Shown piece by piece: positions 4,133 through 54,060 of a stretch of 64,000 bases of DNA. The translations under genes were made by a program, and so were the position numbers. The first letter of the stretch is position 1. Each line of letters opens with the position of its first letter. The notes beneath the pieces were generated by a model that was not told the DNA's origin, ran no database searches, and was given only the letters and a program-made list of their open reading frames with translations. The DNA is from an uncultured virus (IMG/VR IMGVR_UViG_3300027974_001778) (lineage: Duplodnaviria > Heunggongvirae > Uroviricota > Caudoviricetes): IMG/VR virus record IMGVR_UViG_3300027974_001778, positions 62,001-126,000 of that record. One strand, written 5' to 3'.

Positions 4133-4878
4133 TGCAAGAAACTCTATCTGCAACAACAGAAGATGTTTTATCTAAAAAGAGAGGAAGAAAAGCTGTTAAT
4201 TTAAATTATTTTGATGTAAGAGAAGAAGATGCGGTTAGAAAGTTTTTAATCACAGAGGACTCACACGAAAAAAATAAAATATATAATGAATTTTTAAGAG
4301 GACCTCTTGATAAGATGATTTCATCTATCATACGACGATATAAACTATATCGTAAGGACATGGATTTTAACGAAATTCATACAGACACTCATTCGTTTTT
4401 AATGACTAAAGTTGACAAGTTTAAACCAGATAAGAATAAGAAAGCTTATTCTTATTTTGGTACAATTTGTAAAAATTACTTAATGGGTCAAATAATTAAA
4501 GACCAAAAAGAAACGAATAGAAAAATATCATATGAAGACATATCTTCAAGTTTAGAAGAAAGAGTGGATATGAGTTATAGAATTGATGATGATATCGTTG
4601 AAACCGATATCATTATTGTTGAATATTTAAAAGAATTAAAAGAATTTATCGATAATGAAAATTTAAACGATAATGAAAAAAAATTAGGGTATGCCCTTAT
4701 TGATTTGTTTGATAACTATGAAAGCATCTTCTCAGGAGCAGATAATAACAAATTCAACAAAAATGTAATCCTACTTTCACTAAGAGAAATGACTAACTTA
4801 AGTACTAAAGAGATTAGAAGTTCAATTAAAAGGTTTAAAAAATTATATACAGTTATTCAGATTAAAATGAAAAACTAA
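4132..4878 (+). CDS. phage late sigma factor (T4 gp55-like)
   Basis: Sigma region-2-like KFKPDKNKKAYSYFGTICKNYL, N-terminal NYF motif; T4-like context. Confidence 0.75.
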   Translation: MQETLSATTEDVLSKKRGRKAVNLNYFDVREEDAVRKFLITEDSHEKNKIYNEFLRGPLDKMISSIIRRYKLYRKDMDFNEIHTDTHSFLMTKVDKFKPDKNKKAYSYFGTICKNYLMGQIIKDQKETNRKISYEDISSSLEERVDMSYRIDDDIVETDIIIVEYLKELKEFIDNENLNDNEKKLGYALIDLFDNYESIFSGADNNKFNKNVILLSLREMTNLSTKEIRSSIKRFKKLYTVIQIKMKN

Positions 4879-4898
4879 TTAAAAAAGTATTTATAGGT

Positions 4899-9123: not shown

Positions 9124-10632
9124 ATGTCAATTCTAAGGTCTTACATAGATAAAAATAATACCATCGTATCAAACTCATATGTTAATACAGGAAGAAACCC
9201 TGTTATTGAATTAAATTTTGGTGCTTCGGATTACATAGTTCCTAATTACGGTTACTCAAGATTACTTTTCAACTTAGATTTATCTTTGTTAGAAGAAAAC
9301 ATTGCAACAGGTGTTATATCAACAGGATGTACATCAGCAATGACTCACACACTAAAGATGACCAATACTTCATCATTTGATAATGAATTACTTAATACGT
9401 TCATGTCAAATGAAAGAAGACGTGCAACATCATTTGATTTAATATTATTTAGAATACCTAACGTATCAGGTAATACAGGAAATCCACAATATTGGGATGA
9501 AGGTGTTGGATACGATTATACTGATTTTAATATTGCCCAAGGAAGCTCACAAGGTGGAATTTCTCCATTAACTTACGTCGATAGTAGAGCATTCTCAACA
9601 AGACCATCTAATTGGTACCAAACAACAACAATAGATGATTGGTCTCAACCAGGAGTATACAGTAATACTAATAGTGGCACAGTTAACTATTCAGGTCTTA
9701 CAATCGTTGCAAGACAACATTTTGAGTTAGGTAATGAAGACCTTAACATGAATATGACTGACGAGATAAATGGTATCTTAAACGGTTCTATCACAGGTGT
9801 TACAGGTTGGGGAGTTGCGTATCTTCCTCAAATTGAAAACATCACTGGGTTAACCGATAGTTACAGTGTTGCATTCTTTTCAAGACATACTCAAACTTTT
9901 TACCAACCATACCTTTTAACTAATTATGACGACTTAATTCAAGACGACAGGAATCTATTTTTGAAAAGCCAAGAGAACAAATTGTTTTTATACATTTATC
10001 AGAATGGTGATTTAGTTAATTTAGACGCAGACCCGTTCGTTAGAATTGAAGACCGAAATGGTGACGCGGTAACAGGAATGGCATCATTAACAACTTGTTT
10101 AAGAACTAAAGGTGTTTATGAAGTTGTTGTTCCTAATGGATTTACATCATACCCTACACCTTGTCAATTTTACGATGTATGGTCAGGTTTAACTATTAAT
10201 GGTCAAGGTATTCCAAATGTAACAAATCAATTTACATTACAACAATATAATGCGGGAATTCAGATTGGGCCTCTTTCTAAAGAACCATCTAAATTTGGAT
10301 TTAGTTTTTATGGTATATTACAAAATGAACAAATATTAAATACTGATATTAGAAAAGTTGGTGTGACAATTAAAAAGGCTTACACTGGTCAACAATTATT
10401 AGAGAATGTTTCTTCGTTTTATAGAGTATATGTAAAAGAAGGAACTACTGAAGTTCAAGTCCAAGATTGGACTCCTATCAATAGAACTCCAAACGAATTT
10501 TATTTTATATTTGATATGAGAGATAAAATACCTAATCAATATTATGTAGACATTCAAGTGAATACTTCAGGAGAAAAAGATACTTATAAGAAACAATTAA
10601 CCTTTAATATTGTAAATACAAAACAATCATGA
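9124..10632 (+). CDS. probable virion structural protein
   Basis: 502-aa beta-rich ORF with upstream TATTTATA (9104-9111). Confidence 0.6.
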   Translation: MSILRSYIDKNNTIVSNSYVNTGRNPVIELNFGASDYIVPNYGYSRLLFNLDLSLLEENIATGVISTGCTSAMTHTLKMTNTSSFDNELLNTFMSNERRRATSFDLILFRIPNVSGNTGNPQYWDEGVGYDYTDFNIAQGSSQGGISPLTYVDSRAFSTRPSNWYQTTTIDDWSQPGVYSNTNSGTVNYSGLTIVARQHFELGNEDLNMNMTDEINGILNGSITGVTGWGVAYLPQIENITGLTDSYSVAFFSRHTQTFYQPYLLTNYDDLIQDDRNLFLKSQENKLFLYIYQNGDLVNLDADPFVRIEDRNGDAVTGMASLTTCLRTKGVYEVVVPNGFTSYPTPCQFYDVWSGLTINGQGIPNVTNQFTLQQYNAGIQIGPLSKEPSKFGFSFYGILQNEQILNTDIRKVGVTIKKAYTGQQLLENVSSFYRVYVKEGTTEVQVQDWTPINRTPNEFYFIFDMRDKIPNQYYVDIQVNTSGEKDTYKKQLTFNIVNTKQS

Positions 10633-13503: not shown

Positions 13504-15013
13504 TAGAAACTATTATAACATTTGATGGGTATTCTACTCCTTTCTCATTAAATGCTAAATCAACGTTATAACCATTAAAATTAGGTACTTCGCTTATCAT
13601 ACCTCTTTCTTCATATTTTTTTAATCTTCTTTCTGGAATATCCGAAGGTTGTATTTGAAAATTTATTTTGACGGTTTCGTTCCCTTTAAAACTATGTTTA
13701 TAAGGTTTGCTACCTCCAAAAGGATTGATGAAATACCCTAACACCATAGGAGATTTAATATTATAAGTTATAGTTAAAAATTGTTTATTTGATTGTATGT
13801 TTGAAATTATAAGTTTACTATTTTTTGGAAAGAAGGTAGTACCACCATTTGTGTTTGGTACAACTGTAAGTCCTTGGGTGTTAATTATTTCAGTTAATTT
13901 TTCATTATTTTGAGTATTAACTTGGTCCGATAATGATTGTATTTCTTCCGCACTAACATTATCATCTGTAGTTCCTTTTATTGGCATACCACACTTATCT
14001 AAAACTGCTAATATTTTTTGAGAAGTATTTCCTCTTGCAGATTGTGGGTTAACGCAATCGTGATATATTTCAGTACCAGTACCATTAACAATTCTAACCT
14101 CTTGAACTGACGTATGACAATTTGCACTTGAAATACATCTTGTTGAAAGTATTAGTGTTTTTTTGTTCCATTTTGGATTAGAAACAATTTTCTGAACCAT
14201 TTCATTTGTAACGGTAAATTGGGCAGTCCTATCACAATCATTAGGGTTATTGTCTTGCCCACATCCATAATTATTTAAATTTGCAATACCTAATAAAACA
14301 TTATCAATATAAAGTTCAAATTCGGCGTTATTACAGTTGTGTCCACCTCTGCATCGAAATTTTGCATCAGGTTTATTATAGTAACTCACATCTATTACTA
14401 AATTAACTAAGCAATCATAGATATCTTCTGTTTTAGTTGCAGATAAACTAATTTTAAATTTAACATATTGGTCTTCCAAATATTTCACATCTTTAGGGTC
14501 ATCTTTAAGTTTAACATAATCATATTTTTGAGTACCAAGCTCTACATTTGTTTGGGCTTTTGGTATATTTGGCATTGTAGTCAAATACCCTGATTCTACT
14601 AATCCTTGAAAATAATTGGTTAAATATTGTTGTAATTTTTCTCCTCTTAATTTTGCTAATTCTCCTTGTCCTAATGGTTTCTTTAATTCATTATCAAAAT
14701 TAGTTACCTTGGATTCTCCAACTTCAATTTGAATGTTAAGTTGGGTACCGTTATTTGCTTTTGCAAATTGTGCAATTTCTTGTAATTTTAAATCCAAATC
14801 TTTTTTACCCTCACCTAATTTTTCAATAGAATACAATCCAGATGGGTAAGACTTTTTATCCAACGAAATTTCCTTCCCTGTTGTAGTTGTCTTTTCACCA
14901 ACTTTAATTTTTTGTTGTTCGTTGATTAAATATAAATTTTTAGTTGCACTCTCATGCATCATTAATATTCTTTTAACTTCTTCTGTGTCAATATTCCAAC
15001 TTTGCTTAATCAT
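13490..15013 (-). CDS. hypothetical protein, Cys-containing, with RILMMHE..LINEQ leader
   Basis: 507-aa ORF directly downstream of the major capsid gene. Confidence 0.7.
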   Translation of the reverse strand: MIKQSWNIDTEEVKRILMMHESATKNLYLINEQQKIKVGEKTTTTGKEISLDKKSYPSGLYSIEKLGEGKKDLDLKLQEIAQFAKANNGTQLNIQIEVGESKVTNFDNELKKPLGQGELAKLRGEKLQQYLTNYFQGLVESGYLTTMPNIPKAQTNVELGTQKYDYVKLKDDPKDVKYLEDQYVKFKISLSATKTEDIYDCLVNLVIDVSYYNKPDAKFRCRGGHNCNNAEFELYIDNVLLGIANLNNYGCGQDNNPNDCDRTAQFTVTNEMVQKIVSNPKWNKKTLILSTRCISSANCHTSVQEVRIVNGTGTEIYHDCVNPQSARGNTSQKILAVLDKCGMPIKGTTDDNVSAEEIQSLSDQVNTQNNEKLTEIINTQGLTVVPNTNGGTTFFPKNSKLIISNIQSNKQFLTITYNIKSPMVLGYFINPFGGSKPYKHSFKGNETVKINFQIQPSDIPERRLKKYEERGMISEVPNFNGYNVDLAFNEKGVEYPSNVIIVSTNEQ

Positions 15014-38534: not shown

Positions 38535-38580
38535 ATTGATAATAAATACACTTTCAGTTTGGTTTTACGATATTTATTCT

Positions 38581-38588
38581 TATCTTTG
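38581..38588 (+). promoter_or_regulatory. Bacteroidota sigmaA -7 element (TAnnTTTG) for tmRNA
   Basis: TATCTTTG 20 nt upstream of the tmRNA 5' end. Confidence 0.7.
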
Positions 38589-38608: not shown

Positions 38609-39022
38609 GGGGGTGTCCAGGTATTGATTGCAGTAGTTAGGGTAACCAGGCACGTAGTCAGAATTCATCTATGACTTAAATCTATGGTGAAGAAAATCAA
38701 ACGGCAAAACTTTTGCTAAAATGGCTGCTTTAGGTTTAACTAGAGAAGCTGTTGTTGTTGGTGCTTAATTAGTACAGAACAACATTCGGGTCGATGTACA
38801 TATAACCTAGGAACAGAAGTACTCAAGGTGTAATACCACCCAAAGATGTATTAGGAGTCTTGTTCAGGGGTCTACTCCAACACAAGTGAACCCGACACAG
38901 TTATTGGTTACGATGTCAAAATAGGAACCATTTATTTGTCAGTTGAGAACTAACTGAATAAACGTGTAGTCTGTTTATGTTAATATTGTAAGACGCGGGT
39001 TCGATTCCCGCCACCTCCACCA
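38609..39022 (+). ncRNA. ssrA: tmRNA; predicted tag (A)GKTFAKMAALGLTREAVVVGA* at 38703-38768
   Basis: GGGGGTG/CACCTCC-ACCA acceptor with G3.U, T-arm GCGGG-TTCGATT-CCCGC, 414 nt, internal tag ORF. Confidence 0.93.
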
Positions 39023-44964: not shown

Positions 44965-45054
44965 GTTTTTTTTTCTTTTTTTGTTTATTAATTAATAGAC
45001 TATAAATATAAGAAGGTTAATGTATTATGTCAACTTTTCAAATATTTTTTTCTG

Positions 45055-45139
45055 CGGAAAGTGAGAGACTCGAACTCTCGCATCATTTGATTGATGTACG
45101 GTTTAGCAAACCGCTGCATTACCACTCTGCCAACTTTCC
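45055..45139 (-). tRNA. tRNA-Ser(GCT)
   Basis: Cloverleaf with long variable arm; loop TTGCTAA. Confidence 0.92.
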
Positions 45140-45145
45140 AATATT

Positions 45146-45481
45146 TTACAATAATTGTAAAAGATAATAAGACAATTTATATCCCGCAAATGCCCCTAAG
45201 GCTGATGGTATTGGAAACACAATCATTCGTCCCAAATCTGTTACATATTTGGGACGGTTAACTATCTTACCCATAAAAAAGTAATATGTTAGATAACCTA
45301 ATAATACCGCAATATCCGCTCTTGTTGCAATAAACACAACAATAGTCGCACCAATAAACCCAAAAGTAAAATTATCCCTAACTCCTTCCCAAATTTCTGA
45401 AGTAGTGGCATCTTTATACTCTTTTACAATTTTCTTAAACTTGGCTCTATTGCCAGTTTTCTTTTTAATTTCAGTTTCCAT
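45146..45481 (-). CDS. hypothetical membrane protein
   Basis: ATG at 45481 just after tRNA-Ile; hydrophobic segments. Confidence 0.7.
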   Translation of the reverse strand: METEIKKKTGNRAKFKKIVKEYKDATTSEIWEGVRDNFTFGFIGATIVVFIATRADIAVLLGYLTYYFFMGKIVNRPKYVTDLGRMIVFPIPSALGAFAGYKLSYYLLQLL

Positions 45482-45483
45482 TG

Positions 45484-45557
45484 TTGGAATAGATGGACTC
45501 GAACCATCGACATTCACCGTATCAGGATGACGCTCTAACCAACTGAGCTATATTCCA
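45484..45557 (-). tRNA. tRNA-Ile(GAT)
   Basis: Cloverleaf; loop CTGATAC; TATCTTTG promoter at 45570-45577. Confidence 0.92.
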
Positions 45558-45650
45558 TTGTTGTTGGTACAAAGATACTAATTTTATTTTATAAAAAAAA
45601 TCCCCCTGACTTTTAATCAGAGGGATTCAATATTAAATTTAAAAAATATA

Positions 45651-46100
45651 CTACTTTAAAAATCTTAATTTGTATATTGTTGAATAAATTAATTCTTGAA
45701 CCGTATCTATTTGGTTTTGAATAAACGATTCTTTAACTCCTTTTCTTACTTTTTCAATCATGTAGTCTAATGATTTAAAATAATTAATTACTTGGTCAAC
45801 ACTTTTATAATCCTCAGTTTTTGCTGAGTCATAATTTTTAACAAGGTCGTACTTACCTTGGTAACTTTCGATAATACCGTCCACTAATTTGTCTATACCC
45901 TCATAATATCCTTGTAATGCTTTATGTTCTGAATATGATTTGGTTTGTAAATGAAAAATATGAACTTGAGTTTGAGAATGTAATAGTGTTGATACCATAT
46001 TCTTAAATCCTGAGTTACTTTTAGTTTCAGACTTATTTTCCTGCTCATTCAAATGCATCACTTTGAATAGTTGTTCTTTTGTTAATGTTAATTTATCCAT
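45651..46100 (-). CDS. ferritin/Dps-like four-helix protein (DUF5856-like)
   Basis: HIFHLQTKSYSEHKALQGYYE..D..D..IESYQGKY...YKLRFL. Confidence 0.75.
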   Translation of the reverse strand: MDKLTLTKEQLFKVMHLNEQENKSETKSNSGFKNMVSTLLHSQTQVHIFHLQTKSYSEHKALQGYYEGIDKLVDGIIESYQGKYDLVKNYDSAKTEDYKSVDQVINYFKSLDYMIEKVRKGVKESFIQNQIDTVQELIYSTIYKLRFLK

Positions 46101-46135
46101 ACAGATAAATAGTCAACATATTCAAAAAATATTTG

Positions 46136-46207
46136 GGTCAACGGACGGTATCGAACCGTCTTCCCGAGCTCCACAAACTCGTGCTTCACCTTAAAGCTTC
46201 AAAGACC
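46136..46207 (-). tRNA. tRNA-His(GTG), two U.U mismatches in acceptor stem
   Basis: G-1:C73; loop TTGTGGA. Confidence 0.8.
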
Positions 46208-46212
46208 ATATG

Positions 46213-46286
46213 TTGCGAGAGGCAGATTTGAACTGCCCACCTCAGGGTTATGAATCCTGCGCTCTCACCAAATGAGCTACCTCGCA
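46213..46286 (-). tRNA. tRNA-Met(CAT), initiator-like
   Basis: Loop TTCATAA; CAGGA/CCCTG anticodon stem; U1:A72. Confidence 0.85.
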
Positions 46287-46292
46287 GTTTAG

Positions 46293-46364
46293 AGGTTCTA
46301 TTAGGATTCGAACCTAAACTCCAAAATCCGTAGTTTTGTGTGCTATCCGTTACACCATAAAACC
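46293..46364 (-). tRNA. tRNA-Arg(ACG)
   Basis: Cloverleaf; loop CTACGGA. Confidence 0.9.
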
Positions 46365-46446
46365 TTAGTCACGGTCATTGTCCCATTTTACAACAAGCAT
46401 CAAAATAACCCATAATAATAATAACCACATATTTTTTTCCATTTTG

Positions 46447-46517
46447 TTATCCGACCTGGATTCGAACCAGAAATGACAGTACCAAAAACTGTAGTGTTAC
46501 CGTTACACCATCGGACA
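46447..46517 (-). tRNA. tRNA-Gln(TTG)
   Basis: Cloverleaf; loop TTTTGGT. Confidence 0.92.
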
Positions 46518-46522
46518 ATATG

Positions 46523-46596
46523 TGGACCAGATAGGAATCGAACCTATTACCTTCACATTATGAGTGTGCCGCTCTAACCGAATGAGCTACAAGTCC
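46523..46596 (-). tRNA. tRNA with CAT anticodon, probably Ile2 (lysidine) rather than Met
   Basis: Loop CTCATAA; GGACTTG acceptor resembles Ile2. Confidence 0.8.
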
Positions 46597-46689
46597 ATGA
46601 AGCTAAACATTGCTTTCAGGGTTGAAATGGCTCACAGATAAATCCGAATCACCACCTACTGATTTTACAGTATCTTAGTTTAACTTTTG

Positions 46690-46771
46690 TGGGAGTAGCT
46701 GGACTCGAACCAACGAACTCGAAAGAGGGAAGATTTACAGTCTTCTGCCATTGCCACTAGGCGATACTCCC
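46690..46771 (-). tRNA. tRNA-Tyr(GTA)
   Basis: Long variable arm; loop CTGTAAA. Confidence 0.92.
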
Positions 46772-46910
46772 AAAAATCAGGAAAGAGGAAGATGGTTCAG
46801 TGGACATCCTCTTTTACGATTGGCATTACTAATGGTAGTTTAAACTCCGACGATGTCTTATTCCAACCACTACCAGGTATTTACATCATCATTCCCCAAT
46901 CAACCTTTAG

Positions 46911-46983
46911 CACGCACGAAAGGGGTCGAACCTCTGACACATAGTTTTGGAGACTACTGCTCTACCATCTGAGCTACGCACGT
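46911..46983 (-). tRNA. tRNA-Trp(CCA)
   Basis: Cloverleaf; loop CTCCAAA. Confidence 0.92.
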
Positions 46984-46989
46984 GTTTAC

Positions 46990-47235
46990 TTAATTAATAA
47001 ATTCTTCTGTGTTTATGTTATGTTCGTCTAATATTTCGTATATCTTTCCAAACACTAACTCTAAAGTTTCGTACTTATCAACATCTTTACCTTCTAAAGA
47101 CCACTCTAAAGACTTTTTAGTATTATGGGTAATTTCCCATAATGCCATAGCCATATCAAAAGACTTAACCGCTCTTTTATGAGCAATTACTTCATCTTGG
47201 TCATTTAAATCAAATTCTAATATTCCTTTTGCCAT
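46990..47235 (-). CDS. hypothetical protein
   Basis: MAKGILEFDLND ORF between tRNAs. Confidence 0.75.
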   Translation of the reverse strand: MAKGILEFDLNDQDEVIAHKRAVKSFDMAMALWEITHNTKKSLEWSLEGKDVDKYETLELVFGKIYEILDEHNINTEEFIN

Positions 47236-47249
47236 AATATATATTTTTG

Positions 47250-47321
47250 AGGTCGATACAGGATTCGAACCTGTGTAAATAGTTTTGCAGACTACCGCCT
47301 AATCCACTCGGCCAATCGACC
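47250..47321 (-). tRNA. tRNA-Cys(GCA)
   Basis: Cloverleaf; loop CTGCAAA; U73. Confidence 0.92.
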
Positions 47322-47507
47322 ATTTAACGTTTCTTTAATTTTATATTTTTTACATCTTTTTTTAGGTATCTCAACATAATATGAACCAAATACAGAAATA
47401 AAAAGTCCAACATAGTTTTCTCCTTGTTCACTAACTTCTTGTAAAACGGTTCCTTCATATAAATGAGGAAAAATATCCGCGCTATCTTTTTTTACAACTA
47501 CTTTCAT
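47292..47507 (-). CDS. hypothetical protein (3' end runs 30 nt into tRNA-Cys)
   Basis: ATG with A-rich leader. Confidence 0.55.
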   Translation of the reverse strand: MKVVVKKDSADIFPHLYEGTVLQEVSEQGENYVGLFISVFGSYYVEIPKKRCKKYKIKETLNGRLAEWIRR

Positions 47508-47519
47508 TTTAATTTATTT

Positions 47520-47738
47520 TTAATGTGTTCCGTTTGTTAATGAAATCCCATGCCTTACTCCTGTAATGAAATCTTCAATTTCTTCTTCGGTCATATTGTT
47601 ATATCTCTTACCGACAGTATGTCCAATCTCATTACCACAATCACTTAAATCTCCTTCGTATATTGTTACATCTGATTTTCCTTTCAAAGATACAGAAATC
47701 CAAGATAAATCACTACTGTTAAATGTTCTTTTTTCCAT
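47520..47738 (-). CDS. hypothetical protein
   Basis: ORF in tRNA cluster. Confidence 0.7.
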   Translation of the reverse strand: MEKRTFNSSDLSWISVSLKGKSDVTIYEGDLSDCGNEIGHTVGKRYNNMTEEEIEDFITGVRHGISLTNGTH

Positions 47739-47743
47739 ATTTT

Positions 47744-48367
47744 TTAATTTAATGAATTTGGGTAATACAATAATGTCGGGTTCTTTTTTTGGATATCAAC
47801 CTCGGGATATCTTTCCTTAAATTTCATCACATTAAAAGGTTGAGTTATAATATGGAACCCACTTCTTGTTTTAATAAAAGTCATTCCTTGTTCTTTTCCC
47901 GCCTCTTTCTGTAACTCGTTTATATATTCTCTCATTTTAATTTGACTTGGAGAATGGTTAAATCCATCAATGGATACATTATCAATATCAATAATCCATC
48001 TTTTCTCTTGAGTCTTTATCTGTCCCACAACCGAGTCAAATAACCCCTTTTGGTTCTGAACTCCATTCTTAATTCTCTCAGCCAAACTTGCCAACATATC
48101 CAAAGACACATCTCTGTGATTTTGTTTCTGAACATGAATGTAAGCTCTTGCCTTGAACATCTCACATAATTGCATCACCTCATCATATCTCCTTTCCAAA
48201 TGGTCAACTGATTCAATGCAATATGTTTTAATAGTTCTAACCGACTGATGGTTATCTCTTTCTCCTTCAGGTTGGTCTTTCTTACGTTTGAAAACATACA
48301 GCATATAGAAGTCACCCTTCTCCTCAAAGTTCAATAATGGTTTTATTATGTCTATATTGTTTATCAT
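47744..48367 (-). CDS. hypothetical protein with AEP/primase-like motifs
   Basis: WIIDID and KTRSGFHII; ATG at 48367. Confidence 0.55.
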   Translation of the reverse strand: MINNIDIIKPLLNFEEKGDFYMLYVFKRKKDQPEGERDNHQSVRTIKTYCIESVDHLERRYDEVMQLCEMFKARAYIHVQKQNHRDVSLDMLASLAERIKNGVQNQKGLFDSVVGQIKTQEKRWIIDIDNVSIDGFNHSPSQIKMREYINELQKEAGKEQGMTFIKTRSGFHIITQPFNVMKFKERYPEVDIQKKNPTLLYYPNSLN

Positions 48368-48381
48368 ATCATTTTTTTTTG

Positions 48382-48484
48382 TTGTTAAGGTGGGATTCGA
48401 ACCCACAACGTAGTCTCGTAAAGAGAATCATCACCGTTTCGACTTACCGAGCCCTGTGCTCGTTTACATATCTACTACTTAACT
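48382..48484 (-). ncRNA. tRNA-like ncRNA 1 (acceptor + T arm, non-canonical interior)
   Basis: GTTAAG/CTTAAC stem, T-arm GTGGG-TTCGAAT-CCCAC, internal CGAGC/GCTCG and TCTC/GAGA hairpins. Confidence 0.6.
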
Positions 48485-48558
48485 TCCTACCCCACTTCAC
48501 CAGCTTAACGGACTGGCTGCCATATGGGAGTGGGGGTTTCCCGTTAATTCGGGACTCC

Positions 48559-48680
48559 GCGATGTTGCGGGAATCGAACCCACTCGATGAACTACTTGTG
48601 ATATGCACCAACCATTTGCTCCAATCCTAGTATTAAGGAGTGTTACCTACAAATCACCATCATTCAACCCTTTAACACCA
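48559..48680 (-). ncRNA. tRNA-like ncRNA 2 (acceptor + T arm, long interior helix)
   Basis: TGGTGTT/AACATCG stem, T-arm GTGGG-TTCGATT-CCCGC. Confidence 0.55.
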
Positions 48681-48827
48681 AATTTGACTACTGACTGACT
48701 CCTTTCGAACTTTGAGGGTTTGTATCATTCAATATCAGTAGTCCAAGGCTGTAGGAGCTCATCTTTACACTTAGGCTCTTTGTCTTCTCATGTTGCAACA
48801 TTTACGACCGTAGCGTCACCTTGTTTG

Positions 48828-48900
48828 TGGTACGAGGTGGGTTCGAACCACCGACAACTTGTTCTTCAGACAAGCACTCTACCAACTGAGTTATCGCACC
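48828..48900 (-). tRNA. tRNA-Phe(GAA)
   Basis: Cloverleaf; loop CTGAAGA. Confidence 0.92.
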
Positions 48901-48972
48901 AAGTTTAAAGTTAAAGTCGCCCACACTTGTTCGGGGCGGGACCTTTCGGTCACCTTCGACATCCCCTCAACT

Positions 48973-49188
48973 TTAATTCACTTCAATATCTTCCAAAGGT
49001 ACATCTTCTCCCTGAGTATGTTTATAAACTGTATTAAAAAACTCTCCTAACAATCTATAGTCCTCAGGAATCATATGACAAAAATCAAATGCAGGAATTG
49101 CACCATGAATTTGACCTTGTACTACCTTATCAAACTTATCATCTGGTTTGTACTCAAACACAGTATGTCCTCTAAAAATATATTTCAT
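48973..49188 (-). CDS. hypothetical protein
   Basis: 71-aa ORF in tRNA operon. Confidence 0.65.
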   Translation of the reverse strand: MKYIFRGHTVFEYKPDDKFDKVVQGQIHGAIPAFDFCHMIPEDYRLLGEFFNTVYKHTQGEDVPLEDIEVN

Positions 49189-49189
49189 A

Positions 49190-49289
49190 ACTTCCGATTT
49201 TGTCTTGTTTTTACTTCCGAATTTGGACGGGTTTTACTTCCGACTTTGTCACTGCTCACATTTGAGGAAGTTTACTGCTCAAATTTGAG
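49190..49289. repeat. 23-nt-periodic short repeats
   Basis: ACTTCCGA at 49190, 49213, 49236; ACTGCTCA.ATTTGAG at 49251, 49274. Confidence 0.7.
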
Positions 49290-49296
49290 ATTTATG

Positions 49297-49369
49297 TAGT
49301 CCCTGTAGGAATCGAACCTACGACAACTTGCATGTAAGGCAAGTGCTCTTCCAACTGAGCTAAGAGACT
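49297..49369 (-). tRNA. tRNA-Val(TAC)
   Basis: Cloverleaf; loop CTTACAT. Confidence 0.92.
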
Positions 49370-49374
49370 AAATG

Positions 49375-49448
49375 TATCGCGTACGGGGCTCGAACCCGTA
49401 ATCTTCATCGTGAAAGGATGACGACTTAACCAATTTGTCCAACGCGAC
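49375..49448 (-). tRNA. tRNA-Glu(TTC)
   Basis: Cloverleaf; loop CTTTCAC; TATCTTTG at 49459-49466. Confidence 0.92.
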
Positions 49449-49493
49449 ATTTGTTTCACAAAGATACAACCAATATTTCAAAGAGCCAAAAAC

Positions 49494-49661
49494 AAAAAAC
49501 CCTGAACTTCATTTCTGTAGTTCAGGGTATATAAAAAATTTGGTTTATTTTTAGTTTAAAAAATTATTCAAAATTATATCCGAACTACATGACTGCATAC
49601 GCTCATACCAACAAGTTTCTTGTTGTTGACTAAAGACTGTATGTTTTATTGTAGTTCTCAT
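49494..49661 (-). promoter_or_regulatory. attenuator-like leader: 36-aa uORF (49551-49661), antiterminator 49580-49589, terminator 49499-49528
   Basis: TGTAGTTCGG in the uORF is complementary to CTGAACTACA in the terminator 5' arm/loop; TATCTTTG at 49680-49687. Confidence 0.6.
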
Positions 49662-49735
49662 TGTTTCTAATATATAGTTCAAAGATATGAAAAAATCTTT
49701 GAGTGTCAAATATTTTTCCAAGTATTTATAAAAAG

Positions 49736-50155
49736 ATGAAGACATTAAGAGAAATTATTAAAGAAAATTTATTAGTTGAGAAAAGAATAACTCAAGTTAA
49801 CTCATCTTTAGAAGTTTTATTTGTATTTGATGTGAATAGAACCAGTCATGCGTTCGATAGAGATACTAGAGATGATATTGAAGGATATAACATAAGAGCG
49901 ATTGAGAATGATGAAATCAGAGAAATTATCAGTAAGGTAAAAAAAGAAATCTCCGAAAAAATAGTAACAAGAGAAATTGTACCTGAAGAAGATTTTGTCG
50001 TAAAATCTTTAAAGTGGGAATTGGCAATGGCGATAACTCCTGTTCATATGGGAGGAACCTATTGGCAACTAATCATCAAAACAGTATTTAGAGAATCCAA
50101 TCATAACCCTTTTAGAGTTGGTAAAAATCAATTGGTTATTTATTCTGACATCTAA
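49736..50155 (+). CDS. putative BECR-fold RNase-like protein
   Basis: TSHAFDR ... LIIKTVFR motif pair; MKTLREIIKE leader; ATG 5 nt after TATTTATA. Confidence 0.5.
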   Translation: MKTLREIIKENLLVEKRITQVNSSLEVLFVFDVNRTSHAFDRDTRDDIEGYNIRAIENDEIREIISKVKKEISEKIVTREIVPEEDFVVKSLKWELAMAITPVHMGGTYWQLIIKTVFRESNHNPFRVGKNQLVIYSDI

Positions 50156-50156
50156 T

Positions 50157-50246
50157 AAAAAAGGGTAACACTAGTATCTGAATCGTTCCCGTGTTACCCA
50201 GTTTGTAATTGAGCTTGTGTATCTAAATCGTGCTCCTCAATCACAA
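50157..50246 (-). ncRNA. candidate about 90-nt sRNA with two hairpins sharing loop motif ACGATTYAGATAC
   Basis: TATCTTTG promoter (50249-50256), two stems, terminal T-tract. Confidence 0.65.
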
Positions 50247-50308
50247 TACAAAGATACAAAAATATTTTGGTTTACAAAATCTATTGTATTTTTTTTTTAT
50301 AAATATTG

Positions 50309-50389
50309 TACCCCAAGTCGGACTCGAACCGACACGACTTACGTCACAAGTTCCTAAAACTTGAGTGTCTACCATTCCACCATCGGGGT
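50309..50389 (-). tRNA. tRNA-Leu(TAG)
   Basis: Long variable arm; loop TTTAGGA. Confidence 0.92.
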
Positions 50390-50489
50390 ATACATTATCA
50401 TCGCTCCAGCCACATCGAGGAACACGCCGCCCCCGCGTTGTTTAAGTGTATGAATTGCGCCGTATCTCACTGAGTTACGATGATAATTG

Positions 50490-50563
50490 TGATTCGGAAA
50501 GGATTCGAACCTTTGACCCCAAACTTAGAAGGTTTGTGCTCTATCCAGCTGAGCTACCGAACC
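50490..50563 (-). tRNA. tRNA-Arg(TCT)
   Basis: Cloverleaf; loop CTTCTAA. Confidence 0.92.
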
Positions 50564-50771
50564 AAATTTCCCCACCTGAAATCCCAGTGAGTAGATATTC
50601 GCAGTTTTTCGTATTGAAAAACCCAACGCGTCTTACCGCTTAAAAAGTCAAACATACTCGGTGGCGTTGTTACGACCATTCTCCGAGACCCCCTCTTAAG
50701 GCCGTGGTAGGAAACAACCATAACATCTTTAAAGAACGTTACCAAACTTGATGAGTACTTCTAACTCATTG

Positions 50772-50853
50772 TATCAGAGGTGGGACTCGAACCCACACGA
50801 GCAAAGCTCAACAGATTTTAAGTCTGTCTTGTATACCATTCCAACACTCTGAC
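50772..50853 (-). tRNA. tRNA-Leu(TAA)
   Basis: Long variable arm; loop CTTAAAA; TATCTTTG at 50863-50870. Confidence 0.92.
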
Positions 50854-50943
50854 ATTGTTTTACAAAGATAGTGAATATCTTTAATAAAGTCATAAAAAAA
50901 CCCCGAACTTTTTTAGTCGGGGTTTTAATTATAATAATTATTA

Positions 50944-51663
50944 TTAATCATTAAAACTTTCCTCGTAATAAGTATCGCTTGCGTTATCTTCTATATTTTC
51001 TGTATGAACCAATTCGATTGTCATATCATGAAAATTGAATATAAATTGTCCATCAGAACCTTCATTAATTTCCCAACCACTATAGTTATCACTAAGCTCT
51101 CTGTAACACCAATCTTCAATTGCAGCTGGAACTCCATCACCTGTTTCATTAAAACTACTTTCAAGATATCCCGAATCACCAGAACCATTATATGTTACTA
51201 TTAAAATCCCATCGTCAGGAATTGTAAGGTCTTCTAATACTCCACTTTCTTCCCATTCTTCAAATAGCTCCTTTCCTTGTTCATCCTCCCAAGTAACTGA
51301 ACTACCTTCTCCTCTAGTATAAAAAGACCACCAACGAGTAAAACTAATTTTTTTAGAATCTACGTCAATGTCGTATTCAAGTCTTTGATAATTCGTATCA
51401 TCATTATCAGGTTCTCTAATTAAATTATTATCATCGCAATATTTCATAATTTTTTGAAGTATTGGAATCAATCCTGATGGAATATCTGCATTGTAGTTAT
51501 TAGTGAAATGGGTTACATAATCCCAATCAACATTGTCATAATCAAATTCCTCTTGATTATCCATATCAATTTCAATGTTGCCGTCTTGCATTCCCATTGA
51601 ACCTAAGTAATTGGATATTCTTCTTAAATATTGTTTTTCTTCTGGTGTTAAAATTCCTTTCAT
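50944..51663 (-). CDS. DUF6878-like protein
   Basis: VTYNGSGDSG ... GWEINEGSDGQFIF; adjacent to DUF6915-like gene. Confidence 0.55.
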   Translation of the reverse strand: MKGILTPEEKQYLRRISNYLGSMGMQDGNIEIDMDNQEEFDYDNVDWDYVTHFTNNYNADIPSGLIPILQKIMKYCDDNNLIREPDNDDTNYQRLEYDIDVDSKKISFTRWWSFYTRGEGSSVTWEDEQGKELFEEWEESGVLEDLTIPDDGILIVTYNGSGDSGYLESSFNETGDGVPAAIEDWCYRELSDNYSGWEINEGSDGQFIFNFHDMTIELVHTENIEDNASDTYYEESFND

Positions 51664-51674
51664 ACTTATAAATA

Positions 51675-52028
51675 TCAGTCGTTGAACTCTAGTTTAATTG
51701 TTTTTAACATCCATTGAGGACGTTGATTTGTTGATACGTTATTTATCCATTCTTTGGCAGATGGAATGTAGTTATTACAATCTTCTTTAACATGTTGTTC
51801 TCCAACATATCTGGTGTAGACTGTAGTCCCGTCGCTATTCTTAAATTCGGCCCCAAATCTTTTTTCCATTTCAAAAATACCCTCACTATGATGTCTAAAC
51901 ATTCTATGAAGTGAATCTCCAAACCATCCTTTAGTCTCATCTAACCATTCATGTAGATGAATATAGTCTTCAGGTTTTCCACCAAATTTTTTGGCGGATG
52001 ATTTTGCATGTAAGTTAGGGTGTGCCAT
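51675..52028 (-). CDS. DUF6915-like protein
   Basis: MAHP..HAKSS.KKFGG.PEDY..LH.W.D.TK...HR..RHHSEGIF...GEQHVKED. Confidence 0.7.
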   Translation of the reverse strand: MAHPNLHAKSSAKKFGGKPEDYIHLHEWLDETKGWFGDSLHRMFRHHSEGIFEMEKRFGAEFKNSDGTTVYTRYVGEQHVKEDCNNYIPSAKEWINNVSTNQRPQWMLKTIKLEFND

Positions 52029-52593
52029 TTTTCCAAGAGTCTTTATTGTAGTTAAAATATACGAAATCTTCTTCTAAATAAGAATAAACATAATCAGCCA
52101 AATCTTGGTCATAATATTCTTTATAATCATATCCTGATGAATAACCGTTGTTTAAAATGTTATCATACACAATATCAAAAAGTTCATGTGAATCATCCAT
52201 AAAAAATGGAAGTTTTAATATGTCTGAGTATAAATTCTCAACTCTAATTAATAAATCAGGAGTTTTGGTAATCCTTTTTTTTAAAAAAAATTCATAATCC
52301 AAAGTTTTGCCAGGAAATTTTATTTCTTCATGCAATTTTTGTCTAATCCAACTATTAAAGTCATTAGGAATTAAATTAGAGTGTATACAAAAAAGATGAT
52401 ATATTGAAATCATTCTGATATATGGATTTCTTGTATTTAAAACAAAAAAATATTCTTCTTTACCTTTTGGAATTTGCAAACCATGTAGTCCAATAACGTC
52501 AAATTCAAAGTATGTTTGAATAGGCATGCATGACCTTGCTGCCGTTCTAATAGGTGTTGCCCACAATACTTTATATTTGTCAGAATAATTCAT
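52015..52593 (-). CDS. sulfotransferase-like protein
   Basis: PIRTAARS, RNPYIRMISIY, EEDFVYFNY. Confidence 0.7.
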   Translation of the reverse strand: MNYSDKYKVLWATPIRTAARSCMPIQTYFEFDVIGLHGLQIPKGKEEYFFVLNTRNPYIRMISIYHLFCIHSNLIPNDFNSWIRQKLHEEIKFPGKTLDYEFFLKKRITKTPDLLIRVENLYSDILKLPFFMDDSHELFDIVYDNILNNGYSSGYDYKEYYDQDLADYVYSYLEEDFVYFNYNKDSWKNGTP

Positions 52594-52826
52594 TATAAAA
52601 TCTTTTCTTGTCTTCTTCTTGCCATTTCAGCGTCTTTGTACCATCTAATCCAAGTTAAAGACACATCAATTGGTGCTAACACCCAAGCCATAACCATAAC
52701 CATAATAGTATCTAATTCAGGAGACCCACCTGTTGGGTCATCACTATACCTTTTACTAAGGTTTTTAAATAACTGATAGAAACAATATATTACACATACA
52801 AGGTAATATCCAATAAACATACTCAT
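52593..52826 (-). CDS. small membrane protein
   Basis: ATG after tRNA-Thr; two hydrophobic segments; exact start uncertain. Confidence 0.55.
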   Translation of the reverse strand: MSMFIGYYLVCVIYCFYQLFKNLSKRYSDDPTGGSPELDTIMVMVMAWVLAPIDVSLTWIRWYKDAEMARRRQEKIL

Positions 52827-52841
52827 AAATAAAAATTTTTG

Positions 52842-52914
52842 AGCCTCCTGTCGGACTCGAACCAACGACCACTTGTTTACAAAACAAGAGCTCTACCAAC
52901 TGAGCTAAGGAGGC
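52842..52914 (-). tRNA. tRNA-Thr(TGT)
   Basis: Cloverleaf; loop TTTGTAA. Confidence 0.92.
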
Positions 52915-52917
52915 TTA

Positions 52918-52992
52918 TGGAGCAGATGAGAGGAATCGAACCTCCGTCTCCTACTTGGAAGGAAGGAGTAATGACCATTATACGACATCTGC
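52918..52992 (-). tRNA. tRNA-Gly(TCC), encoded CCA
   Basis: Loop CTTCCAA; U73-CCA; one U.U in anticodon stem. Confidence 0.9.
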
Positions 52993-53048
52993 GTGGAGTG
53001 CAGTGGGAGGTACCTTCCCTGTGGTTACTACACATTTTATCCACTTTG

Positions 53049-53121
53049 CGGTCCCGACGGGATTCGAACCCGTATCTCGCACCGTGACAGGGTGGAATTG
53101 TAACCATTCAACCACGGAACC
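53049..53121 (-). tRNA. tRNA-Asp(GTC)
   Basis: Cloverleaf; loop CTGTCAC. Confidence 0.92.
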
Positions 53122-53149
53122 GTGTATGGGGAGTTTCACCCCAAACTTT

Positions 53150-53638
53150 TTACTCAACAAAGATATGATTATATTCCAATATTCTTCGTTTTAATTTATT
53201 AACATATTGTGGGTCCTCGGCATAAACTTTACCGAGTAATGCAAAATATTGTTTTTTTGTCATATCATTACGTGATTTTAACATGTGGTCTTGCCACAAT
53301 GAGTAATCATACACGCTATACCCCCAATCTTCGTATTTTGAGTAACCACTTTGGGTTTCCCCAATCTTTGCGGATTCTCTTTTACTTGGAACTTTCATTC
53401 CAAAAAGATTATTAGCTGATTTGAACAACTTTGATGTAAACTCTCCTGATTCTAATATAGCTTGTGCAAACACAATATCAGGAAATTTTATACCATACTT
53501 AATTATCTGCTCATACAAACTTTCTTTTGAGATACTCTCTTGAGTATTTGATTCAATCTGTACTTGCTTCTCTTGTGCTTTGGTTGCCATTGTTCCTAAC
53601 AATAACATCCCAGTCAATAAGAATGTTTTTAACTTCAT
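53150..53638 (-). CDS. secreted GH73 glucosaminidase-like peptidoglycan hydrolase
   Basis: Signal peptide; AQAILESG, NNLFGMK, YAEDPQY. Confidence 0.85.
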   Translation of the reverse strand: MKLKTFLLTGMLLLGTMATKAQEKQVQIESNTQESISKESLYEQIIKYGIKFPDIVFAQAILESGEFTSKLFKSANNLFGMKVPSKRESAKIGETQSGYSKYEDWGYSVYDYSLWQDHMLKSRNDMTKKQYFALLGKVYAEDPQYVNKLKRRILEYNHIFVE

Positions 53639-53718
53639 TTCTTTCTTTTTGTCTGTTTATGCTTCAGGATTGCTCCATCCACGATACTACAACATTGGAA
53701 TTTTTCCACCTACCGCAG

Positions 53719-53790
53719 AGGCCCCTGTAGGATTTGAACCTACGACCAGTTGATTAACAGTCAACTGCTCTACCACTGAGCTAAAGGGCC
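53719..53790 (-). tRNA. tRNA-Asn(GTT)
   Basis: Cloverleaf; loop CTGTTAA; discriminator U. Confidence 0.9.
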
Positions 53791-53830
53791 TTATAATAAT
53801 AAATAAAATTTCCAATAAAGGAAACTTTTG

Positions 53831-53904
53831 TCGGGATGGCTGGATTCGAACCAACGGCCTCCACGTCCCAAACGTGGCGCGATACCTGACTACGCTACAT
53901 CCCG
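53831..53904 (-). tRNA. tRNA-Pro(TGG)
   Basis: Cloverleaf; loop TTTGGGA. Confidence 0.92.
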
Positions 53905-53909
53905 TAAAT

Positions 53910-54060
53910 AAAAAAACCCTGAAGGATAAGTTCAGGGTTTAAATAATTGGCTATAATATTGTTACCAACCACTCGCTTCTGAACTTACGCATATAGTGCC
54001 CCCATCTCCATTAGGAGTTGTCGGCGTGTCTAAATTTGTATTTGTGTTCATAGTTTTCAT
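53910..54060 (-). promoter_or_regulatory. attenuator-like leader: 32-aa uORF (53962-54060), antiterminator 53979-53987, terminator 53914-53940
   Basis: TAAGTTCAG in the uORF is perfectly complementary to CTGAACTTA in the terminator; tRNA-Pro starts about 10 nt after the stem. Confidence 0.65.

Follow-up and report, generated by a model that had tools for sequence, protein, structure and literature searches.

A candidate leader-peptide attenuator preceding a tRNA gene cluster in an uncultured T4-like phage from lake water

Multivalent leader-peptide attenuators are found in the enterobacteria, including the thr leader (Thr, Ile) and the ilvGMEDA and ilvBN leaders (Ile, Leu, Val), while in E. 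coli the pheM leader attenuator controls pheST, coding for the phenylalanyl-transfer RNA (tRNA) synthetase. Clusters of tRNA genes are carried by the phages T4 and T5, and phage tRNA genes are common; their purpose is debated, with codon bias, host tRNA decay and escape from tRNA-cleaving defences all having been considered. To our knowledge, no cis control that senses demand is known for phage tRNA clusters, nor do we know of an earlier case of leader-peptide attenuation regulating tRNA genes. A full-text literature search, with subscription journals outside its coverage, returned no description of such control of tRNA genes. The general principle of such attenuation is also set out in PMC1183508. 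Phage tRNAs are thought to offset codon-usage mismatch, host tRNA loss or anticodon nucleases; recent work on the reasons for carrying them includes PMC11464382, PMC11555353 and PMC11025619. The element described here, leader A, is encoded on the minus strand of a 64,000-nt stretch (the window; bases 62001-126000) of the 127,475-bp IMG/VR virus record IMGVR_UViG_3300027974_001778, which is 41% complete by CheckV estimate and derives from an uncultured virus in lake water. Leader A probably acts on a phage tRNA cluster as a transcription attenuator of the ribosome-mediated (leader-peptide) type, gating its expression.

Promoter P1 of leader A (49680..49710, minus strand) consists of a TTTG element at 49710, a 19-nt spacer and the -7 box TATCTTTG (49687-49680), and fits the full -33/-7 pattern of the Bacteroidota. 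From the -7 box-to-start distance given in PMC6847099, the start site is predicted at around 49675, with the upstream open reading frame (uORF) beginning 14 nt further on. The uORF (49551..49661, minus strand) comprises 36 codons and a TAA stop codon and encodes the peptide MRTTIKHTVFSQQQETCWYERMQSCSSDIILNNFLN, with the regulatory codons in the core from His7 to Gln23. An A is present at both -3 and -12 of its start codon, in keeping with the rule found in the same paper. A longer frame of 64 amino acids was rejected as the leader A open reading frame (ORF), as it begins upstream of P1 and lacks conservation. Modelling of the leader RNA distinguishes four segments with 1:2, 2:3 and 3:4 pairings. 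Segment 1 (GAACUACA, codons 2-4; 49650..49657) is predicted to pair with segment 2 in the minimum free energy (MFE) folds, and an anti-antiterminator role is proposed for it; a central hairpin (49596..49643; CAUAC/GUAUG around CAACAAG-AAA-CUUGUUG) covers the regulatory codons. Segment 2 (UGUAGUUCGG; TGTAGTTCGG; 49580..49589), the proposed antiterminator strand, lies within the uORF and is a copy of the terminator 3' arm. The intrinsic terminator (49494..49528) is made up of ACCCTGAACT / ACAGAAATGA / AGTTCAGGGT at 49528-49499, corresponding to a 5' arm (49528-49519), a loop (49518-49509) that folds further to a GAAA tetraloop and a 3' arm (49508-49499), followed by a T run to 49494; its hairpin has an energy of -17.1 kcal/mol. 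Segment 3 (CUGAACUACA; CTGAACTACA; 49525-49516), the partner of segment 2, lies in the terminator 5' arm and loop. The two pair over 10 bp, including one G.U, with an RNAduplex energy of -14.5 kcal/mol that is equalled by six of 2000 dinucleotide shuffles of the uORF. The leader as a whole folds at -41.9 kcal/mol (z -4.3 against shuffles), and in its MFE fold GAACUACA is paired with UGUAGUUC, the same segment that is able to pair with the terminator, with the middle codons in a hairpin. The -7 box, the uORF and its peptide, the terminator with its T run and the 10-bp pairing with one G.U had been pointed out in a first-pass annotation, and all were recovered here.

Between terminator A and the tRNA-Glu gene there is a second full promoter match, P2 (49459..49490, minus strand), in which TTTG and TATCTTTG (49466-49459) are separated by 20 nt, with transcription predicted to start about 6 nt upstream of tRNA-Glu. 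The downstream unit (46135..49448, minus strand) comprises 11 tRNA genes, for Glu, Val, Phe, Cys, Trp, Tyr, Met, Gln, Arg, Met and His, with interspersed small ORFs, and closes at a terminator at 45628-45598. Leader A combines an ORF that starts and stops before the terminator, codons cognate to the downstream tRNAs, an intrinsic terminator and a mutually exclusive antiterminator; the genes behind it fall outside the classical scope of attenuators, which covers those for biosynthesis enzymes or synthetases. We infer that the leader is translated, that transcription ends at the hairpin and that ribosome stalling leads to read-through, with feedback on tRNA supply. Host RNA polymerase would start at P1 and transcribe the 36-codon leader and, with no ribosome present or with one running fast to the stop codon, segments 1 and 2 would pair, the central hairpin and terminator would fold and transcription would end at 49499-49494. 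When matching charged tRNA is scarce, the ribosome would linger on the regulatory codons, of which there are one or a few each for His, Val, Phe, Gln, Glu, Cys, Trp, Tyr, Arg and Met, and would hold segment 1 and the central hairpin open, leaving segment 2 free to pair with the emerging terminator 5' arm. The 2:3 pairing would then block the terminator and the polymerase would read into tRNA-Glu through to tRNA-His, the products of which would relieve the stall as negative feedback on the tRNA supply. P2 probably provides the basal level, with the route via P1 and the attenuator forming a demand-driven boost on top of it.

The composition of the leader peptides argues for this reading. All ten amino acids of the cluster (Glu, Val, Phe, Cys, Trp, Tyr, Met, Gln, Arg and His) are present in leader A. 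Among the control segments for single leaders, taken at equal length from the 46 long ORFs of the window, such all-ten presence occurs in 40 of 14,279, and 11 also reach the in-set fraction of leader A. A sister element, leader B (53914..54060, minus strand), has a uORF at 54060-53962 (MKTMNTNTNLDTPTTPNGDGGTICVSSEASGW), a segment 2 at 53987-53979 and a terminator at 53940-53914, which ends 9 nt before tRNA-Pro; genes for tRNA-Asn, Asp, Gly and Thr follow, with Leu in the next block. Its peptide includes an 18-residue stretch of N, T, D, P and G only, plus one L, and a run of this length with one residue outside {P,N,D,G,T} is matched by none of 14,463 control segments. The amino-acid sets of the two leaders are nearly disjoint, each fitting its own tRNA block. 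Ten leader/cluster pairs from five virus records were compared overall, with the other records reached via a tRNA-Glu anchor. With the share of residues in each leader that the tRNAs behind it can serve as the score, the true pairing of leaders and clusters is the unique best of 362,880 permutations (nine pairs, four records), both by amino acid and by wobble-decoded codon, and the cognate tRNA set is the best set for eight of the nine leaders by amino acid and seven by codon. When the tRNA sets of ten leaders are defined by distance only (400, 800, 1500 and 3000 nt), 2, 0, 0 and 0 of 200,000 random pairings, respectively, equal the true one. The match between leader codons and downstream tRNAs proposed in the first-pass annotation is thereby upheld, well beyond what a single locus could have revealed, and is robust to the definition of the tRNA sets.

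The leaders also appear to co-evolve with the content of their clusters, as suggested by co-change events that are few and non-independent. An Ala codon in the B leaders (GDAGT) is accompanied by a tRNA-Ala in the cluster in four of five relatives (G007-G010), while the window has GDGGT and no tRNA-Ala, and the diverged A-type leader of G001 has four Asn codons and a tRNA-Asn in its cluster. A third, Leu/Arg-rich leader (MRTTLLHTLLLDRQGLLRRLMP) precedes the Leu-Arg-Leu tRNAs in the close relatives G006, G008 and G009. It is absent from the window, G007 and G010, where a plain terminator follows the DUF6878 gene at that site. Since the three relatives carry a leader there, the phage of the window appears to have lost the Leu/Arg leader or never to have gained one. 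In the window, terminators at 50899-50924 and 45598-45628 (minus strand) lie just 5' of the Leu-Arg-Leu and Ile-Ser tRNA blocks, following genes of DUF6878 and DUF5856, respectively. One observation is anecdotal: in the window and in leader G002-1, the residues of the leader (V-F, C-W-Y) follow each other much as the tRNA genes do, which is not so for the other leaders.

The alternative pairing recurs in the other leaders with similar geometry. For each of the nine leaders, the strongest duplex that the uORF can form with the terminator 5' arm maps to the final third of the uORF, 1-26 nt 5' of the stop codon, and the stem begins 22-28 nt past that codon. The observed duplex energy is reached by 6, 137, 6, 100, 1, 4, 24, 0 and 93 of 2000 shuffles in the nine leaders. 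In an equal-geometry test, p<0.05 was obtained for six of seven leader terminators (Fisher 7e-10), with the seventh, that of leader B, at 0.066. Of the 24 terminators labelled as controls, four proved to belong to leaders (two intact ones in G005 and two truncated ones in G004; p = 0.020, 0.067, 0.007 and 0.007) and were set aside. None of the remaining 20 ordinary terminators gave p<0.05 under equal geometry (range 0.156-0.984), and these include the window's own before tRNA-Leu (p 0.77) and tRNA-Ile (p 0.98), both of which are without a leader ORF and without an antiterminator complement. These comparisons show the alternative pairing to be specific to leader-linked terminators.

The stem of terminator B is nearly the same as that of terminator A, while the upstream strand of element B, TAAGTTCAG (53987-53979), fits the bases on the loop side of terminator B (CTGAACTTA, 53935-53927), a correspondence which the first-pass annotation had pointed out. 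The real covariation lies between leader types, where wholly different terminator stems each have their own upstream copy, as in the stem/copy pairs GGTTGAC / GTCAACC, CCCAAAC / GTTTGGG, GCCTTCC / GGAAGG, GCTCGATTC / GGGTCGAGC and CTAAATCC / GGATTTAG. In the MFE folds of 12 leaders (A and 11 others), a long-range helix from the N-terminal codons to a 3' segment encloses the regulatory codons. Leaders A and B are alike in their 3' part, with the B leader of record G006 ending in MSSDIIFE as the A leaders do. The terminator lies 9-26 nt from the first tRNA in B, G003-1, G003-2, G004c-1 and G004c-2, leaving no room for a promoter in between, and the tRNAs behind these five leaders must therefore be read through.

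Relatives of leader A were collected with a 19-mer from the leader as query, giving 28 viral loci that represent 17 distinct sequences, and with an anchor on the tRNA-Glu gene alone, which is unbiased as to the leader and gave 33 loci. Leader A is present at 24 of the 33 anchored loci, with a diverged form at two more (L157, L163). The -7 box of P1 is invariant in 17/17 distinct A-type sequences, and conservation begins at P1 whatever the upstream context, be it a divergent gene of 139 amino acids, other DNA or a tRNA. Both ATG and in-frame stop codon are retained in 13/13 distinct full-length A leaders, and the indels 5' of segment 2 measure 3 nt, one of them falling within the loop of the inner hairpin. 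The structure of the terminated state is paired in 92.6% of cells in the A family, against 27-41% when the partner strand is slid. The segment 1:2 helix (columns 28-34 with 98-104) is paired in 12-13 of 13 sequences and is almost invariant, without covariation. Compensatory changes occur in the central inner helix (97.8% paired), where pair 65:72 is A-U in nine sequences and G-C in two, and in the terminator helix (99.1% paired in 13 sequences), where pair 165:187 is C-G in ten, U-A in two and U.G in one. In the antiterminator helix, 90% of cells show pairing, compared with 9-53% when slid, and one of its pairs is G-C in ten sequences, G.U in two and A-U in one. A blastn search against GenBank phages returned no match to leader A or to the G002-1 leader. 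A generic stem pattern (CCCTGAAC..TTCAGGG) was dropped as a leader finder, since it retrieved at least 114 mostly unrelated hairpins in viral contigs, and an AT-rich 16-mer anchor gave at least 120 matches, 17 of which passed the ORF filter, with about seven of these being true leaders.

Several observations weigh against attenuation by leader A. Its in-set fraction is only 0.49, a value reached on fraction alone by 1262 of 14,279 control segments, and it contains mostly one codon per amino acid, without runs, so that sensitivity to any one tRNA may be low. The B leader of G006 has the Ala codon, and no tRNA-Ala was found in that record. For most A relatives the segment 2:3 pairing amounts to 7 bp rather than 10, the three additional pairs on the loop side being confined to the window's clade, and the duplex p is only 0.05-0.07 for B, G002-2 and G004c-2. 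The covariation between paralogues reported in the first-pass annotation is supported by the other leader types with their different stems and matching copies; within the A family, it is thin and comes down to one pair without significance (120/500 shuffles), because the helices are nearly invariant and vary so little. Assembled contigs from four lake-water metatranscriptome runs provide a weak RNA hint in its favour, namely one contig of 217 nt with one mismatch (49654-49438) that spans the uORF, terminator, P2 and 11 nt of tRNA-Glu. Neither the ends nor the levels of transcripts can be read from assembled contigs, and DNA may be present in the libraries. Runs X1, X2 and X4 have no contig over 49410-49891, and no conclusion is drawn from this absence. 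The mechanism further requires transcription-translation coupling in the host, which would have to be assumed. P2, which the first-pass annotation had raised as a caveat on the basis of its box at 49459-49466, proved to be a full-consensus promoter, kept as TA[TA][CTA]TTTG in all 16 A-type relatives that extend that far as well as in L163. It could supply the cluster alone, and these tRNAs therefore need not depend on read-through. A further insertion of about 85 nt (TCGAAATACGGGTGGCTCCC...GGGGGCGAAA...) is found between P2 and tRNA-Glu in L123, L128 and L129 only; it may be a small structured or mobile RNA and, as tested in L123, has no Rfam match.

A rival account treats leader A as a small gene or small RNA in its own right, equipped with a promoter and a terminator; transcription of the tRNAs would then start at P2, and the likeness to an attenuator would be incidental. 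P1 to the terminator would indeed form a self-contained RNA of about 180 nt, the region folds better than shuffles, the ORF frame is kept and P2 is full and conserved. This account is nonetheless quite unlikely, as it leaves unexplained the match of leader composition to each tRNA set, the copies of each terminator's own 3' arm in segment 2 and the several sister elements placed so close to the first tRNA that no promoter fits in between. Should the uORF sense decoding speed, as the composition suggests, its output could still differ from antitermination: a stall might expose the RNA to Rho or nucleases and so lower tRNA output, or act on the processing or stability of the precursor. Composition speaks to sensing only and not to the sign or route of the response, and the conserved gap of 22-28 nt between stop and stem could have another purpose; a hairpin and U-run with an exclusive upstream partner, specific to leader terminators, are, however, needed by antitermination and by neither of these outputs, which we therefore regard as unlikely.

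The conservation of both the N- and C-terminal parts of the peptide across leader types could also point to a functional peptide, for example a small regulator made only when phage tRNAs are available. These ends fall on the two strands that form the closing helix of the RNA, which accounts for their conserved look, while in the middle any amino acid of the tRNA set may replace another and nine of about ten substitutions relative to L120 (counted by eye) are non-synonymous; a peptide product is accordingly very unlikely. A structured leader before genes of the translation apparatus also brings to mind direct, T-box-like reading of tRNAs by the RNA with no ribosome involved. Here, one short RNA would have to read at least ten different tRNAs, and the conserved start codon, frame and stop position suggest translation. 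An Rfam search of 49400-49760 with expectation (E) values up to 10 gave 13 chance-level matches, among which were no T-box, no His, Leu, Thr or Trp leader and no other leader family, and direct tRNA reading is considered extremely improbable. Ribosome-mediated attenuation remains the preferred reading of leader A.

Leaders of the same design are present in other virus records. Leader G002-1 (core FEFDFFAAEADF) is followed by tRNAs for Phe, Glu, Asp and Ala, and G002-2 (core TTFTTYQPKQTQGGKP) by Pro, Gln, Tyr, Thr, Gly, Gly, Lys and Lys. The three leaders of G003 have the cores IINIFEFNVIED (G003-1; Asp, Asp, Glu, Ile, Phe and Ile behind), KNTNKNMTMVVKATAKGGNRNTT (G003-2; Thr, Lys, Lys, Asn, Arg, Val, Ala, Met, Gly and Gly) and SLSSLYLLQSLCQSCVSVLPLHQYW (G003-3; Pro, Gln, Trp, Ser, His, Ser, Leu, Leu, Cys and Arg), while G004c-1 (core LTLNLVLCLVVL) precedes tRNAs beginning with Cys, Val and Leu and G004c-2 (core FEFSFEAAEDD) precedes Phe, Glu, Asp and Ala sets. 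These leaders probably, if with less assurance than the reading of leader A itself, represent a widespread family of phage "checklist" attenuators, in which each tRNA cluster of large aquatic Bacteroidota phages has its own leader spelling its amino acids.

Variants and neighbouring features were also observed in these records. Two leaders of the complete 353-kb G004 are shortened, namely L309 (G004:C1:144000-160000) at 10250-10450 and L312 (G004:C1:204000-211000) at 1700-1880. In both, the same promoter cassette (AAAGCTTGCTAATTAAAAAACTTTTAGTATCTTTG...) is fused in and the start and regulatory codons are gone, while segment 2 and the terminator are retained (duplex p 0.007 each); for these natural variants, constitutive read-through is predicted. 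The terminator loop of the G002-type leader reads TGTTTAG in L191 and its reverse complement CTAAACA in L219/L271 on identical stems, indicating that the loop is inverted. ARAGORN tRNAs with the anticodon TTA, complementary to the stop codon TAA, are encoded in clusters behind leaders at L307 (G002) 4601 and L311 (G004) 6242 and are possible suppressor tRNAs. The Lys-rich mini-ORFs MKNSINIKRKIKR and MKTLLKLKHKCKQ occur directly before tRNA-Lys pairs or triplets in L307 (G002; ~14290-14376) and L312 (G004; ~4790-4885), each with a hairpin after it that lacks a T run, and may represent another type of control that is related to the leaders. The cultured Flavobacterium phage MW353177.1 was considered as an attenuator case and rejected, as its three tRNAs stand behind an ORF of 51 amino acids without a terminator and without matching composition.

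The window represents part of a T4-like phage and encodes a large terminase, portal and major head protein of the T4-like kind. By terminase, the top isolates are Flavobacterium and cyanobacterial myoviruses, all with less than 31% identity. The Bacteroidota promoter consensus, with its -7 box at -12 to -5 relative to the start, is described in PMC6847099. The window contains 15 matches to the pattern TTTG-N17-21-TAnnTTTG where 4.8 would be expected, with 0/100 shuffles reaching 15, which points to a probable host among the Bacteroidota. The 21 tRNA genes of the record are all located on the minus strand at 45054-53904. The motif TTTGAMATATTG, found between terminator and tRNA, is not enriched in the window (6 against 4.7 expected). 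Between tRNA-Phe and the next ORF of the unit behind leader A there are 420 nt without an ORF (48407-48826, minus strand) that contain a T-arm-like GGTTCGATTCC motif, adjoin a sub-threshold tRNA match (48382-48449, 19.8 bits) and are covered by metatranscriptome contigs of runs X1, X2 and X4; this region has no Rfam family and folds no better than shuffles (z +0.75). At gathering score, Rfam matches across the whole window are restricted to tRNAs and one gene for the ribosome-rescue RNA, tmRNA (38609-39022, plus strand; RF00023, 93.9 bits), which is missing from the ARAGORN output and has a consensus promoter (TTTG..TATCTTTG) directly 5' of it at 38558-38588. The presence of a phage tmRNA is of note where tRNA control may rely on ribosome stalling.

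If the family is real, checklist leaders would provide per-cluster, demand-driven feedback on tRNA supply and could sense host tRNA loss, such as that caused by host shut-off or anticodon-nuclease defences. A leader that reads the codons of its own tRNAs would be a direct sensor of tRNA shortage, and which leaders open during infection would tell which shortage the phage responds to, and when. Such leaders would also offer compact natural sensors for codon sets, and annotation of small "hypothetical" ORFs adjoining tRNA arrays as proteins should be avoided.

The phage leaders resemble the thr and ilv attenuators in that a short ORF in the leader carries regulatory codons of several amino acids and a terminator precedes the structural genes; 1:2, 2:3 and 3:4 pairings and read-through favoured by stalling, known from those attenuators, are predicted or proposed for the phage. 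They differ in that tRNA genes rather than enzymes are controlled, the sensed quantity and the product thus being the same kind of molecule, and in sampling up to 10-13 amino acids, mostly once each. Segment 2 lies inside the phage ORF, upstream of the stop codon, and leader A is virus-borne, with promoters of the Bacteroidota type and no Shine-Dalgarno sequence, and matches no Rfam leader family. With pheM-pheST they would share the leader-peptide attenuation of a translation-apparatus gene through sensing of charged tRNA supply, whereas that system is bacterial and has a single amino acid and a synthetase product. The T-box (RF00230) likewise uses a terminator/antiterminator switch to report tRNA status, but binds one uncharged tRNA directly without translation, while the phage leader has a conserved ORF and no T-box match. 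As in T4 and T5, the tRNA clusters behind these leaders are interspersed with small ORFs and small RNAs.

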